Origin: Candidatus Nanohalobium sp.
Lineage (GTDB): Archaea > Nanohalarchaeota > Nanosalinia > Nanosalinales > Nanosalinaceae
Length of the DNA: 24,133 nucleotides
Direction: 5' to 3'
NCBI GenBank assembly: GCA_042217545.1
Contig: JBDGSM010000007.1
Span: 1-24,133, forward strand
Below, in pieces: positions 18,001-21,000 of the stretch; position 1 is the stretch's first letter, and each line of letters opens with the position of its first letter. Position numbers: made by a program.

Positions 18001-21000
18001 TCTCGGCTTTTTCAGCGATATCAACGTCGTTCGCTCCGTTGCCTACGAAAACGATCTTCCGGACTCCTGCTTCCTTCATCTCGTTGAAGGCCTTGCTCTT
18101 ATCATCGGCGTAGACGTCTTTCTCTATAAATTTGAACCTGCCATCGCTGAACTTGAAGGTCCAGCTCGGGACTACAAAGTCTGCATCCAGGTTCCTGGCC
18201 GCTTTACACGACATGCTCTCCGACGTATGGGAGAGAATGCCTACCTTGAAGCCTGACTCCTTGAAAGCCTTCACAAGCTCTGCGCTGCGATCTCTCAAGT
18301 TCAGGAACGACTTGTTGTACCACTCCACAAGGTCTTCCGCGGTCTCATGGTCTGTCTCCTCCAGTAACTTGTTCAGCTGCTGGACGTTCTCCTGCTCGAA
18401 CTCCTCCCGTGAAATCTGTCCGTTCCACCACTTGTCCACGCGTCTGAAGTACTCTTCAGGCGTTTCACCGGCAAGGAGATGGAGTCCGCTCCAGTAGCCA
18501 AGATCCGTCTTTATTTCAAAGCTCTCCCCTTCAAACATCCTGTAAACGTGTTCAGGCCTCGGGTTCGGAGGCACATGCCGGTCACCTGGCTTGAGAGTTC
18601 CCTCTACATCCATGAGAACAACTTTTTTCCCTTCAAAGGCCTTGAAATCTTTTTTTCCCGATAGTACTTCTATATCTTTCATCAGAACTGTTTCACCTCC
18701 GAACTTCTGAACTCTAAGACTCCTCGAGTCTTCCCCGGCCAGCAACCATAGGTTGCGGGAGTTCGACCATCATAATACATGGCTCGAGAGAGCCATTTCT
18801 TGCGTGCCAACTGAGCGTAACCAGTTGTCATCAGAACTGTTTCACCTCTGTGTTCCTGTTCTTGAAGTTTAGTATAGTTACTTTTCCTGGATCTGGCTCG
18901 TGCCCTACACGTTTCTGGAAATCTGTCTGGGCCTGGAACGTCGACGAGCAGATGACGTTCACGCCCTTGTAGCTGCTTACTGCATGGCTGTGGAAGTGAC
19001 CTGAAACCATTACATCCGGCTTCTCCTCGATAACCATGTGATCAGTAGCCTCGGGCGAAAGCATGTTTGTTCCGTACGTCGGCGCAAGATGCCTGCGCTT
19101 CAGAAGATCTATCATAACACGGTCCGGCTCGTCGTAAGCGTGCTCACGAAGCTCCTGAATCTTATCCACGTGATCGTCAAAGCTATAGCCGTGATACATC
19201 AGATGCTTCAGGCCTTTTGACTCGATGCCGTGAAGCCTGACAGTCTGAGGATTCTGGACCCTGTGAACATTATCATATTCAGGAATCCTTGTGAACGCTT
19301 CCCTGGGCAGCCTTGGCTGTGGCTCGGAAAGCCTTGTTATATCGTGGTTGCCCGGTCCTATAATTATCTGTATGTCCTCCGGTATCTTGTCAACCCAGTC
19401 CTCAAACAGTTCGTACTGCTTGTAAATATCGGTTACACGCAGTTCCTCTTCCTGTCCTGGGTAAACGCCCACGCCTTCAACAAGATCGCCTGTGATAACA
19501 AGATAGCCGATCTTCGACGCCGCATCCGTGGAAAGCCACTCGGCAAAACGGTCCAGACGGTCATCAAGAGTATCTATCGATCCAAGGTGTAGATCAGAGA
19601 TGTAAGCCGCCTTGACCTCATCTTCAGTGGAGGCTGTCCTGCCCTGAGGAATAGGAAGGTCAGGCCTCACCACGCTGTTCGCGTAGATGATGTCGCCCCC
19701 CATGCTTCCCTGCACGCCGATCATCTCATCCGGAACAATCAGTTCGCCAGGCCTCTCATCAACAAGGGCCTTGAAAGTCCCTGTCTTGTCCTCAATCTCT
19801 ACTATGTATTTACCTGAGGATGTGGAGTACTTGTCCTTTACAAGGCCTACTGTGGTCGCCTGTTCCCCTTCATCTCTCTTCTCCAGTCTCTTTATGGTTG
19901 TTGCTGACTGAAGCTGCGTTCTCCGGGTAAGAAGCTTTCTCATCCTGTCGTAACGGTCGTTGTAATAGGATAAGAACTCTGGGACGTCTTTTTCTTCTTT
20001 ATTGATATCTGCCTCGTCCATTATCTCGACCTTCGTCCTCAGCTGATCTCTTCTACCTGAATCACGAAGTCTTACAGTTTTCTCTGAGGAGAACTTGGAG
20101 CCTCTGCGGTCGTAAAGCTCCTCCTCTTCCTCGCTCAGATCATTGTTAAGCTTGCTCTCGTCCACTTCTTCATCAAAGTCTTCATCTGTGGAGTCGGTGC
20201 CCTGAGAAGTCTGATCCTGGGAAGGTTCTTCCTGATCCTGTTCAGTATTTCTTTGCTGTTCGGAGGCGTCTTCATCTTCTGAACTATCCGAAACTATAAC
20301 GCTGTCCTCCATCTCCCCCTCCTGTTCAGTAGTTGTACCTTCACTTATTTCAGTCTCGGAAACAGCTTCAGGCGAAGAATCACCGGGCTGTGAAGAAGAT
20401 TCCTGCTCCACCTCTGAGCCTCCACCAGGCCTTGCCTTAACGACCTGCCTCTGCTTGCCCGTGGAGACGTCCTGAGAAAGCTTCTGCCTGAGCCTCTGCA
20501 CCATATCAGCTGAAACATACATCGGAGTGGTGTCAAGCTCTCTGATCAGCTCTACATCTCTCTCAGTCAGTTTCTCTGCTGCTTCTCTTCCCACCATGCA
20601 GCCCTGTTTAGTAAGTTCTTTTACCGCGTTTTCTTCCATACAAAGATTCTCCCCCGTTGATTAAGGCCTTTCTACCCGATGTAGAACTTGTCCTCTACCA
20701 TTTCTTCAAGCCTTCCACAGATATTATCCGAAAGGTCTACGCTGATCTGTCGAGTCCTGCCGTAACGTCCCTTGCTGATGACTTTGGCATTGATAACACC
20801 AAGCATGTCGAGCTCCGAGATAAGGCCTGAAACTCTTCTCTGCGTAAGTTCTGAAACATCTACTGTCTTGCAGAGGGCCTTGTACTCGCTGTAGACATCT
20901 CCTGTAGCGATCTCGTCCTCGTCCTCCGTCATATCAAGTATTGTGTAAAGGACTAGCTTCGAATGCTTCGGCTGGCTTCTTACAGTCTCGACCACTCTGT

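Follow-up and report, generated by a model that had tools for sequence, protein, structure and literature searches.

A structured element in the PolD operon of a Candidatus Nanohalobium genome probably belongs to a transposase-free mobile family that also opens archaeal tRNA introns

The window, the whole 24,133-nucleotide stretch of a Candidatus Nanohalobium sp. contig analysed here, carries a PolD operon in which the gene for the small subunit (DP1) is separated from the next gene, for a HAD-family hydrolase, by 128 nt of non-coding DNA. Read on the minus strand, this insert (18700-18827) opens with CAACTGGTTACGCTCAGTTGGCACGCAAG and continues with hairpins, and it is bracketed by a perfect direct repeat of 21 nt, TCATCAGAACTGTTTCACCTC, at 18679-18699 and 18828-18848 (21/21 identical; GAGGTGAAACAGTTCTGATGA in both copies on the minus strand). 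The initial annotation had described an insert with such a duplication, keeping both the DP1 stop codon and the ribosome-binding site and ATG of the following gene, and its coordinates and anatomy are confirmed; the DP1 and HAD-family genes are both complete without any removal of the insert. No inverted repeats were found around it in 18400-19100. In the following, G000 denotes the genome of the window, C67 its contig, G001 a closed genome of the same genus, G002 a second congener and G020 a genome of another genus. The features of the window that matter here are:

6538..6748, plus strand: tRNA-Thr(CGU) gene, whose 135-nt intron (6577-6711) is a member of the family
12913-17883, same operon: gene for the PolD large subunit (DP2) with an intein, after the HAD-family hydrolase gene
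17885..18682, minus strand: HAD-family hydrolase gene, the downstream host gene
18679..18699, minus strand: downstream copy of the 21-nt duplication, with GAGGTGA as ribosome-binding site of the HAD-family hydrolase gene and the ATG of that gene (18682-18680)
18700..18827, minus strand: the 128-nt element, of the long "N-type" form; covariance model R1 matches 18772-18826 at 61.4 bits, a score that is partly by construction because this copy was used in building R1
18700..18714, minus strand: conserved 3' terminus GAGUUCAGAAGUUCG (consensus UUCAGAAGUUYG)
18767..18773, minus strand: AUGAUGG, resembling a C box, within a second conserved block (..AUUAUGAUGRUCGAACU..) common to long-form copies
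18779..18796, minus strand: hairpin P2, AUGGCUC-ucuc-GAGCCAU
18800..18806, minus strand: CACGCAA box of the conserved core
18808..18827, minus strand: hairpin P1, stem CAACUGG/UCAGUUG, containing the 14-mer AACTGGTTACGCTC (18813-18826)
18828..18848, minus strand: upstream copy of the 21-nt target duplication (GAGGTGAAACAGTTCTGATGA), with the last five DP1 codons and the stop TGA (18833-18831)
18831..20639, minus strand: PolD small subunit (DP1) gene (PF04042, PF00149), the upstream host gene

The insert belongs to a family with the core c-RACUGGUUACGCUCRGUY-N-CACGCAA and a covarying hairpin after it. The family anatomy consists of a near-invariant 5' core (the 5-bp hairpin P1 with the loop GUUACGCU, then N-CACGCAA), the covarying hairpin P2 and variable 3' modules; the invariance of the CACGCAA box in our alignments is by construction, since the box was part of the search pattern. 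The terminal pair of P1 covaries (AU in 22, GC in 7 and CG in 3 of 33 copies, broken in 1), and P2 reaches at least 6 bp in 106 of 110 distinct copies, with 84 distinct 8-mers and a mean z of -2.83 (controls, -0.39). Other long-form copies, too, terminate in the consensus UUCAGAAGUUYG, immediately 5' of the right-hand target repeat. The 14-mer is found exactly five times in the genome (1.03 Mb), where 50 shuffled-motif controls average 0.02. Three of these occurrences open introns, those of tRNA-Glu(CUC), Trp and Ala(UGC), one lies upstream of tRNA-Ile(UAU) on contig C35, and one is at C67; in the Thr(UGU), Ala(CGC) and C3 copies the core is diverged or interrupted. The model R1, independently built here from 33 copies that include the one in the window, ranks the G000 copies much as an earlier covariance model had done: after C67 come C35 (49.7 bits) and the Thr(UGU) intron (30.9), then the Glu (24.6), Trp (24.2), Ala(UGC) (20.8) and Ala(CGC) (20.5) introns and C3 (12.6). 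Motif, covariation and R1 all uphold the earlier view that a single non-coding family, with a 5' core and a covarying hairpin, forms the 5' part of the long tRNA introns and also occurs outside tRNAs. Rfam holds no family for the window's element or for 20 other loci, either at the gathering score or at E up to 1, and in the literature searched neither the motif string, in three spellings, nor any description of this element was found. Two specific functions were tried and rejected. As an antisense guide, the 14-mer has no complementary site in G000 at up to 2 mismatches except an inverted copy in the Trp intron, where it forms a 14-nt inverted pair with 1 mismatch; as a C/D box sRNA, a class that pairs a C box (RUGAUGA) with a D box (CUGA) and has a guide complementary to a target, the element offers the C-like AUGAUGG only, with no CUGA D box inside it and no Rfam match.

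Six long tRNA introns of G000 open with the family core. The claim that the family builds the unusually long introns of this genome holds for their 5' part, their length coming partly from small hairpin modules nested inside, as in the tRNA-Thr(CGU) intron of the window, where a nested 63-nt hairpin insert splits the P1 loop; in the G001 ortholog of this tRNA the core is uninterrupted and scores 34.9 bits with R1. A copy inside a tRNA loop is a tRNA intron because pairing between exon and intron yields a bulge-helix-bulge (BHB) motif, in which a 4-bp helix separates two 3-nt bulges and further helices flank them, and for the tRNA copies aragorn requires intron removal. Such motifs are present in the intron copies of tRNA-Thr(CGU) (H=4, h=5, h'=8), Ala(UGC) (H=3, h=5, h'=9) and Ala(CGC) (H=3, h=4, h'=6), and in 14 of 14 T-loop copies of other assemblies (H=4, h at least 4; 0.18 expected per locus). 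Checked on the tRNA introns of G000, our BHB scanner recovered the splice sites called by aragorn in 13 of 15 (H at least 3, h at least 4), and at the C67 junctions it gave a single weak hit (H=3, h=3, h'=2), not above chance when 1.83 are expected from 200 shuffles, in agreement with the previous judgement that no convincing BHB exists there. Copies begin tRNA introns at position 37/38 and at the T-loop: among 141 distinct copies, 18 start introns called by aragorn and 17 follow a T-loop, while 8 lie directly against the 3' end of a tRNA and 2, on the opposite strand, against the 5' end of one. Position 73/74 of the tRNA is the exact starting point of many copies, and those inspected end with a hairpin and a T-run, like a tRNA-sRNA dicistron; the succession of tRNA-Glu and element recurs in several genera (L017, L021, L031). 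The T-loop introns have been overlooked by standard tools, Rfam and aragorn having failed on them, and annotators should be warned that tRNA genes in these lineages are broken at the T-loop by introns. In single-sequence RNAfold predictions, the T-loop or Woesearchaeota-type intron copies would pair both of their ends into a rod.

Flanking duplications with a score of at least 12 accompany 33 of 118 distinct copies, as compared with 4 of 2360 shuffles, and measure 12 to 44 nt inside the 45-nt test window and up to 90 nt beyond it. The duplication length of 21 bp seen at C67 is not a trait of the family, lengths varying from 12 to 90 nt among copies, and we know of no characterised prokaryotic transposition mechanism that matches a duplication of variable length up to 90 nt. 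The duplicated regions lie at the edges of genes. In 17 duplicated cases examined, 12 of them protein-coding, no protein-context site was farther than about 17 codons from the start or stop of a gene, and at L089, L044 and L120 the repeat starts at the ATG or 1 nt earlier. In 6 of the 9 tRNA-5' duplications that have an aragorn call, the start of the repeat is no more than 2 nt away from tRNA position 1, and at L069, L038, L122, L184, L190 and L191 an intact tRNA is followed by the element and then by a 13-22-nt repeat of the tRNA 3' end. The 5' boundary of most duplicated copies is sharp, at the core or 0-3 nt away from it, and in eight duplicated copies the core is preceded by 6-9 extra bases. 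Relative to adjacent genes, some copies lie in antisense orientation. In some targets, words resembling ACTGG or CAGTT were seen by eye beside the junction.

Comparison of orthologous sites documents both filled and empty states. The C67 site is filled in G000 and G002 and uninterrupted in closed G001 and in G020; the initial annotation was right that the closed genome of the genus has an empty site, and its description of the insertion as recent is not borne out, since G002 shares the insert at the same site in a copy that is 83.6% identical and whose flanking repeats differ at 5 of 21 positions. This identity between G000 and G002 exceeds that of the neighbouring genes (DP1 75.8%, DP2 75.3%, HAD 62.0%), and a local gene tree did not separate one gain at C67 from a gain followed by a loss (bootstrap 52%; site patterns 133/101/111). 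No near-identical donor for the C67 copy was found in G000, the shared part being the first ~30 nt only, nor was a near-identical paralog of L076 found in G067. The contigs of three DNA runs, two of which may underlie the assembly, showed no joint across the element and hence no empty-site allele, in line with the earlier statement that run contigs gave no further empty site. Other sites are occupied differently. At the C3 locus G000 carries the element, G001 has it in decayed form and G002 has an empty site, a pattern that conflicts with that of C67, and therefore gains or precise losses recur; the C35 copy is missing from both G001 and G002. At position 502k of G001 a copy with a clean 12-nt duplication occupies a site that is empty on contig C55 of G000, and this copy is ~96% identical to the one at 587k of G001 over the first ~82 nt, the similarity starting at base 1 of the core. 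As other paralogs within one genome mostly have only the ~30-nt core in common, this G001 pair is the one documented case of recent copy-and-paste. Copies have thus been gained and lost at orthologous sites within one genus.

The family is present in this genome, as had been noted, and is not peculiar to it or to its genus. Many tiny symbiotic archaea share it: no fewer than 118 stretches of DPANN-type archaeal assemblies contain the core without a changed letter, and an identical core is found in assemblies labelled Nanohaloarchaea, Woesearchaeota, Nanoarchaeota and Iainarchaeum. Within the same taxonomic family the 14-mer with at most 1 mismatch occurs in 30 of 50 genomes (the reversed control gave 5 matches in total), and copy number ranges from 0 to 8 or more per genome. 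Six genomes of this family (G020, closed G011, G017, G016, G022 and G042), which are 92-99% complete, are free of the element by model and motif, with no R1 match better than E=0.56; absences outside closed genomes are soft, because many of the assemblies are incomplete metagenome-assembled genomes. A collection of viral contigs gave 0 matches to the core pattern.

A partner enzyme was sought among reverse transcriptases (RVT_1), TnpB (PF07282) and DDE_Tnp_1 transposases across the 50 genomes, and among Y1_Tnp and tyrosine recombinases in G000. RVT_1, Y1_Tnp and DDE_Tnp_1 were not found in G000, which is 92% complete and has one TnpB-like ORF (on C21) and a single tyrosine-recombinase hit (on another contig, C33). 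Across the 50 genomes, RVT_1 occurs in 5 of 30 element-positive versus 2 of 20 element-negative genomes, TnpB over the cut-off in 7 of 30 versus 4 of 20, and DDE_Tnp_1 over the cut-off in 5 of 30 versus 1 of 20. None of the three is present in G001, G003, G015 or G019, which are closed and bear the element, and RVT_1 is present in 2 of the 5 genomes with perfect long duplications. RVT_1, TnpB and DDE_Tnp_1 were accordingly rejected as the cognate enzyme, their presence not tracking the element.

Taken as a whole, the explanation that we favour, and consider probable, is that 18700-18827 is a copy of a small, structured, non-coding and non-autonomous mobile element that spreads without a transposase. 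The places in which copies persist are of three kinds: at protein-gene edges where the duplication leaves stop codon, ribosome-binding site and start codon intact, as at C67; at the exact ends of tRNA genes; and inside tRNA loops. The best reading of this distribution is that copies survive where duplication or splicing spares the host gene. Insertion would be a copy-in event carried out by host enzymes rather than by a transposase or a resident reverse transcriptase, most likely through repair or replication joining the element between two overlapping target ends, as template switching or flap-type ligation could do; an RNA intermediate with ends set by tRNA processing may also be involved. 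The invariant core would act as a cis-site recognised by this machinery, and purifying selection would then retain only copies that are harmless or spliceable. The C67 copy is predicted to be co-transcribed with the PolD operon and not to be spliceable, and it has probably been under constraint since before G000 and G002 split. As counterpoints, recent copy-and-paste is documented by one pair only, and the variable duplications match no characterised prokaryotic transposition mechanism. Moreover, distant lineages have one and the same core, and at C67 the copy is better conserved than its flanking genes; such conservation suits a functional RNA at least as well as it suits junk DNA.

These observations on conservation form the strength of another explanation, which we regard as rather unlikely: that the family is a conserved small-RNA gene, released by RNase Z as a 3' trailer or by the splicing endonuclease as an intron, whose core binds a conserved partner in the cell; C67 and other copies outside tRNAs would then be extra gene copies or cis-acting structures in operon transcripts. 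In its favour, P1 and P2 are maintained by compensatory change, the core is identical in assemblies of four differently labelled lineages, C67 is better conserved than the coding DNA beside it, tRNA-Glu with a following element recurs between genera, and many copies begin at position 73/74, with a dicistron-like end in those inspected. Against it speak the missing element in the six same-family genomes, which suggests that natural element-free strains are equally fit, as well as the variable copy number, the different sites in congeners, the copies antisense to adjacent genes and the lack of an Rfam family and, at up to 2 mismatches, of any complementary site for the 14-mer in G000 besides the inverted copy in the Trp intron; the flanking target duplications are left unexplained.

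A bolder form of the mobile-element explanation, in our view clearly improbable as it stands, is that the tRNA introns of these lineages were born from the element through a mobility independent of any transposase and of a dedicated reverse transcriptase. The 5' end of the unit would be set by RNase Z or the splicing endonuclease, and the unit would be joined to end fragments of cellular RNAs or to DNA flaps, these fragments being the 5' part of a tRNA, its 3' part or the start of an mRNA; host ligation, repair or replication enzymes would write the product into the chromosome, and copies in BHB-capable tRNA loops would become introns. If true, this would account for the 12-90-nt duplications and the exact abutment to tRNA ends, and for repeat boundaries at tRNA position 1, position 73 and start codons.

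Very unlikely, we think, is a SINE-like retroposed small RNA with ends set by tRNA processing and termination, reverse-transcribed into staggered breaks. The variable duplications of 12 to 90 nt, the sharp 5' boundary of most duplicated copies, its coincidence with the RNA-processing sites 73/74 and 37/38, and the repeats that begin near tRNA position 1 or at an ATG would all follow from it, but an A-tail is lacking, additional bases precede the core in eight duplicated copies, and the search for RVT_1 found none in G000 or in closed G001, the latter having ~10 copies with the youngest pair among them. RVT_1 also does not co-occur with the element across the 50 genomes, and it is present in 2 of the 5 genomes with perfect long duplications. 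That the inserts are scars of site-specific integration, attL/attR leftovers of viruses or plasmids as in the SSV/pNOB8 model, would match the tRNA, element and tRNA 3' repeat arrangement of six loci and has been put forward for intron gain in Caldiarchaeum (PMC3293823), but is exceedingly improbable for inserts of just 50-136 nt without ORF or integrase remnant, with repeats of no fixed length at many unrelated protein-gene edges, no match among viral contigs and the single tyrosine-recombinase hit of G000 on another contig.

The favoured mobile element can be compared with several known systems. MITEs, Rickettsia palindromic elements, fungal mitochondrial double-hairpin elements and Correia/REP sequences are short, non-coding, hairpin-rich, dispersed, polymorphic and tolerated in or near genes. 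The family described here is likewise short, non-coding, hairpin-rich, dispersed, polymorphic between relatives and tolerated in or beside genes, but most copies lack terminal inverted repeats (C67 has 0; some relatives, such as the Trp intron copy, have them), the duplications span 12-90 nt instead of a fixed short target-site duplication, no partner transposase was found among the families searched, and copies abut tRNA ends and splice sites precisely. With SINE-like retroposons, which move by target-primed reverse transcription, the family has in common variable duplications, a defined 5' end and enzymes supplied in trans, but not an A-rich tail or a co-occurring reverse transcriptase. Elsewhere, tRNA transcripts host small RNAs: for example, the euryarchaeal tRNA-Trp intron contains a C/D box RNA, and tRNA-snoRNA dicistrons are cut by RNase Z. 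An element at an intron start or after position 73 would similarly let tRNA-processing enzymes set its 5' end, although this element lacks a C/D or H/ACA box pair, matches nothing in Rfam and is missing in many close relatives. Integration into tRNA genes (SSV/pNOB8; Sugahara et al., 2012, PMC3293823) likewise brackets an insert between a whole tRNA and a 3' or 5' direct repeat, but here the inserts are 50-136 nt long and free of integrase, the targets heterogeneous and the repeats variable. A further known system is that of archaeal BHB tRNA introns, for which the review PMC4090602 describes near-identical introns in different tRNAs and positions with BHB-dependent splicing, as here, cites an "intron transposition" in Thermoproteales inferred by Fujishima et al. 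(2010) and supposes intron gain at the DNA level. In contrast to the Thermoproteales introns, the present family also occurs at gene junctions and tRNA ends with target duplications, filled and empty sites are documented, and a ~26-nt core is invariant across several DPANN lineages; the C67 copy moreover has no BHB, and its removal is not needed for the flanking genes.

The mechanism of intron transposition in archaeal tRNA genes was called unknown in that review in 2014, and a preprint on Asgard tRNAs of October 2026 (10.64898/2026.10.13.758758) states in its closing part that intron arrival "remains open". The present family offers a concrete and traceable agent, since one sequence family occurs as intron, as tRNA trailer and as insertion with target duplication in the same genomes, and its hosts have genomes of ~1 Mb with few or no transposases and congeners that differ in filled and empty sites. 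Because cultivated nanohaloarchaeal co-cultures exist, the question of intron arrival becomes testable. The core has also been found in a different setting: in G070, a Woesearchaeota-labelled metagenome-assembled genome, it lies inside a classical MITE of ~303 nt with terminal inverted repeats, an 8-bp target-site duplication in 5 of 8 copies, and 106 left ends.

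All genes around the insert in the PolD region of this contig (C67) lie on the minus strand, and the locus is organised as follows.

20672-21880, minus strand, Cdc6/Orc1 gene
18831-20639, minus strand, gene of the PolD small subunit (DP1)
18828-18848, minus strand, perfect copy of a 21-mer repeat flanking the insert
18700-18827, minus strand, insert of 128 nt separating DP1 from the hydrolase gene
18679-18699, minus strand, second perfect copy of the 21-mer
17885-18682, minus strand, HAD-family hydrolase gene
12913-17883, minus strand, intein-containing gene of the PolD large subunit (DP2), 1656 aa

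The intein of the large subunit spans approximately residues 960-1425 and holds a LAGLIDADG domain (Pfam Intein_splicing and LAGLIDADG_3). In coding-strand sense the 21-mer is GAGGTGAAACAGTTCTGATGA; its upstream copy provides the DP1 stop codon, and its downstream copy is the source of a GAGGTGA ribosome-binding site and an ATG. The orthologous junction is unbroken, with stop and start overlapping or abutting, both in the closed congener G001 and in G020, a genome of another genus of the family, which bears out the insert, the 21-bp duplication and the empty site described in the initial annotation.

The same annotation regarded the insertion as recent, and here its reading has to be revised: the mobile family forming tRNA introns stands, the recent arrival at C67 does not. 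A third genome of the genus, G002, has the element at the identical place between flanking repeats that have diverged (GAGGTGAAACAGTTCTGAAGG vs. GAGGTGAAACAGTTTTAATGA), and the identity between the genome under study (G000) and G002 is higher for the element (83.6%) than for DP1 (75.8%), the hydrolase (62.0%) or DP2 (75.3%), so that the insertion is older than the split of these two species or was exchanged between them. Such conservation points to constraint on the C67 element ever since its insertion. A near-identical donor was not found in G000, where the copy shares just its first ~30 nt with other loci, so a donor of recent date is lacking. That the two 21-mers are perfectly identical is compatible with an old event too; coding or ribosome-binding constraint acts on all but about 13 of their 42 positions, where by our own estimate one change would be expected at ~8% change per branch. 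With a bootstrap of 52% and site patterns of 133, 101 and 111, a tree of the locus from four taxa favours neither loss of the element in G001 nor its original absence there.

The C67 copy is thus best seen as an old, conserved and unspliced member of its family. A search for the archaeal splice motif, the bulge-helix-bulge (BHB), returned one weak match at the C67 junctions against 1.83 expected, and the genes of DP1 and the hydrolase are both complete without removal of the copy. Being oriented as the PolD operon, it is presumably transcribed together with it. Its conservation above that of its coding flanks implies that something selects on it, and what is selected could be the signals for its propagation or a role at the RNA level, e.g., as an intercistronic element for processing or stability.

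In G000 the 14-mer AACTGGTTACGCTC occurs exactly five times (shuffled motifs, mean 0.02), namely at the intron starts of tRNA-Glu(CUC), Trp and Ala(UGC), on contig C35 at 135 nt upstream of tRNA-Ile(UAU), and at C67; the same architecture, diverged or interrupted, is present in Thr(UGU), Ala(CGC) and an intergenic copy on contig C3. The covariance model R1, built from 33 copies including that of the window, ranks C67 first (61.4 bits), followed by C35 (49.7), Thr(UGU) (30.9), Glu (24.6), Trp (24.2), Ala(UGC) (20.8), a new site at C41:15078-15116 (20.6), Ala(CGC) (20.5) and C3 (12.6). The element is carried by 6 of the 15 long-intron tRNAs examined in this genome, and the view that one family is shared by long tRNA introns and sites outside tRNAs is supported. 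A further member lies in the window itself, as the 135-nt intron (6577-6711) of tRNA-Thr(CGU) (6538-6748, plus strand), a gene missed by ARAGORN, which called no tRNA in the window when run without its intron mode. Several G000 contigs (C35 at its end, 8483; C29 at its end, 7479; C54 at its start; C14; C42) terminate precisely at tRNA genes with introns, the outcome one would predict if these repeats break the assembly, and tRNA and element counts for G000 are therefore lower bounds.

The core of the element opens with P1, a hairpin of 5 bp with covariation at its terminal pair (of 33 sequences, 22 have AU, 7 GC and 3 CG, and in one the pair is broken). In 106 of 110 distinct copies the CACGCAA box is followed by a hairpin with 6 bp or more; the mean folding z-score is -2.83 vs. 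-0.39 in control windows, and the stems comprise 84 different 8-mers. Long-form copies of nanohaloarchaeal type, which include C67, its G002 ortholog, C35 and six further loci (L184, L185, L187, L069, L022 and L191), have in common a second block (..AUUAUGAUGRUCGAACU..) and, at their 3' terminus, the sequence UUCAGAAGUUYG directly before the right-hand target repeat. No Rfam family matches the element. The intron of tRNA-Thr(CGU) corresponds to the 79-nt element intron of its G001 ortholog plus a 63-nt hairpin insert within the P1 loop, and that of Ala(UGC) to the G001 intron extended by a two-hairpin module of 57 nt; nested modules account for these size differences, and the unusual length of these introns thus stems, in part, from small modules inside the element. 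Two kinds of module recur (G000 C58:2896-3028, C29:7309-7416 and C3:346-453; L016, L018, L019, L022 and L029), the first being a two-hairpin unit, GAAAACC..GGUUUUC plus GAAGACC..GGUCUUC, located between P1 and CACGCAA, and the second a ~60-nt unit with CGCA../..UGCG ends in the P1 loop. Their presence or absence differs between orthologous introns of congeners.

Contexts of 141 distinct copies, classified automatically

18 copies: start of an intron called by aragorn
17 copies: after a GGTTCRA T-loop, in a tRNA beyond aragorn's calling
8 copies: adjoining a tRNA 3' end, same strand
7 copies: elsewhere inside a tRNA span
2 copies: adjoining a tRNA 5' end, opposite strand
89 copies: other

Canonical BHB geometry, with a 4-bp central helix and the T-stem as outer helix, is found in all 14 T-loop copies with enough flank (shuffled, 0.18 per locus), and removal of the element would restore a TTCRAAT loop in 12 of these 14; the family thus makes both canonical and non-canonical tRNA introns. 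In Woesearchaeota-type MAGs, introns of 82-93 nt sit at the T-loop (59/60) of tRNA genes at L111, L062 and 12 other loci. These interrupted genes are invisible to aragorn and to the Rfam tRNA model, and annotation of such genomes probably misses some of their tRNAs.

With at most one mismatch, the 14-mer is present in 30 of the 50 genomes of the family and in 17 of its 21 genera, the reversed control giving 5 matches in total. The pattern ACTGGTTACGCTC-N4-8-CACGCAA was found in at least 118 stretches across 56 of the 64 parts of a species-representative genome collection, from which a total of ~140 is estimated, and in the viral collection it had no match. Among the matches listed, all stretches except one are in archaeal assemblies, labelled Nanohaloarchaea (including Nanohalobium, Nanosalina, Nanohalalkaliarchaeum and Asbonarchaeaceae), Woesearchaeota, Nanoarchaeota, Iainarchaeum, plain 'archaeon' or 'uncultured Methanosarcinales' (a pipeline label). 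The exception, in an Anaerolineae-labelled MAG (L152), does not form P1; chance or contamination during binning probably explains it. In six genomes of the family that are 92-99% complete, one of them closed, R1 found nothing better than E=0.56, and the element is therefore dispensable.

Direct target repeats scoring at least 12 surround 33 of 118 distinct copies, as against 4 of 2360 shuffles. Their lengths take no fixed value (12, 13, 14 and so on to 32, 38, 42 and 44 nt within a 45-nt test window), and those traced beyond this window reach 45, 44 and 90 nt; a 21-bp duplication is consequently no trait of the family, in which lengths vary from 12 to 90 nt. Empty sites were reconstructed for 17 duplicated cases. 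In all 12 with a protein-coding context the insertion site lies at most ~17 codons from a gene start or stop, which leaves one gene copy intact. At tRNA genes two arrangements occur: either the tRNA start (~12-20 nt) is duplicated upstream of the element, the repeat beginning at most 2 nt from tRNA position 1 in 6 of 9 scorable cases, or the element begins at position 73/74 and the last 13-22 nt are duplicated downstream. The gap between left repeat and core is 0-3 nt in most copies, and in eight it consists of 6-9 nt of similar C/A/G-rich sequence. One duplicated example, L071, comes from an unpublished genome (G069), and our conclusions are independent of it.

Movement is also evident from comparison of sites. 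An antisense element in an overlapping gene junction of G001 (502k) has a clean 12-nt duplication, TACATCGACCTC, and the orthologous site in G000 (C55, ~position 2931) is empty; this element is ~96% identical to another G001 copy (587k) across the first ~82 nt, the likeness starting exactly at core base 1 between unrelated upstream flanks. The C35 copy is absent from G001 and G002. The C3 site is filled in G000, decayed in G001 and empty in G002, a pattern in conflict with that of C67, so that gains or precise losses have occurred more than once. In a nanohaloarchaeal MAG of another genus, a short-form copy (L090) lies 4 nt past the corresponding DP1 stop codon, and this junction is empty in a related contig from a public run.

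A burst in the Woesearchaeota-labelled MAG G070 was not taken to support mobility of the element by itself, being due to an ordinary transposase-type mechanism. A classical MITE of ~303 nt, bounded by ~45-nt inverted ends, encloses the core there (L045, L052, L057, L107, L119, L141, L143 and L144). Of 8 MITE copies, 5 show a target duplication of 8 bp; the left end is present 106 times in 1.5 Mb, and the MITE has no Rfam match.

For the element itself, the variable duplication length does not fit a transposase with a fixed stagger. Candidate enzymes were surveyed in the 50 genomes of the family.

Enzyme families in 30 element-bearing and 20 element-free genomes

RVT_1: 5 of 30 element-bearing, 2 of 20 element-free
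TnpB domain, over cut-off: 7 of 30 element-bearing, 4 of 20 element-free
DDE_Tnp_1, over cut-off: 5 of 30 element-bearing, 1 of 20 element-free

All three are missing from the closed element-bearing genomes G001, G003, G015 and G019, and RVT_1 is present in 2 of the 5 genomes with perfect long duplications. G000 has no match to RVT_1 or to a Y1 transposase, and its one tyrosine recombinase is on a contig other than C67. A TnpB-like ORF of G000 (C21:22385-22570, minus strand; PF07282, 80 bits; open frame of 348 aa) has no link to the element. Since these enzyme families are not associated with the element, we infer that host replication or repair enzymes carry out the insertion, and the unit on which they act may be defined by RNA. 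These enzymes would recognise the invariant core as their cis-site. Template switching, flap-type ligation or target-primed synthesis could join the element between two overlapping target ends, which is expected to give duplications that vary in length. The family is best regarded as a mobile element that is non-autonomous, transposase-free and DPANN-wide, and as one source of tRNA introns.

The mechanism is the interesting part of this story. In the literature outside subscription journals, the intron-transposition papers included, neither the motif string nor a description of the element was found. The nearest described phenomenon is 'intron transposition', which was deduced in Thermoproteales from introns that resemble one another; a review calls its mechanism unknown and supposes action at the DNA level (PMC4090602). 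An integrase-based model has been proposed for Caldiarchaeum, and it resembles our case in the tRNA-fragment repeats seen with some element copies, but does not account for inserts as short as 50-136 nt in targets that are unrelated (PMC3293823).

Two minor observations concern neighbouring hairpins. At L028 (genome G054) and L189 (G002:C39:10866), in two genera with similar flanks, a copy follows an identical short hairpin, GTGGA..TTCCAC, and then AC|GACTGG; no known RNA gene in Rfam adjoins it, and it may be an orthologous copy retained across genera. The short hairpin AGAAAATCTCYGATTTTCG recurs beside tRNA T-arm fragments near element copies (L010, L031, L038 and L156, the last being G001:587k) and possibly represents a small repeat family of its own.
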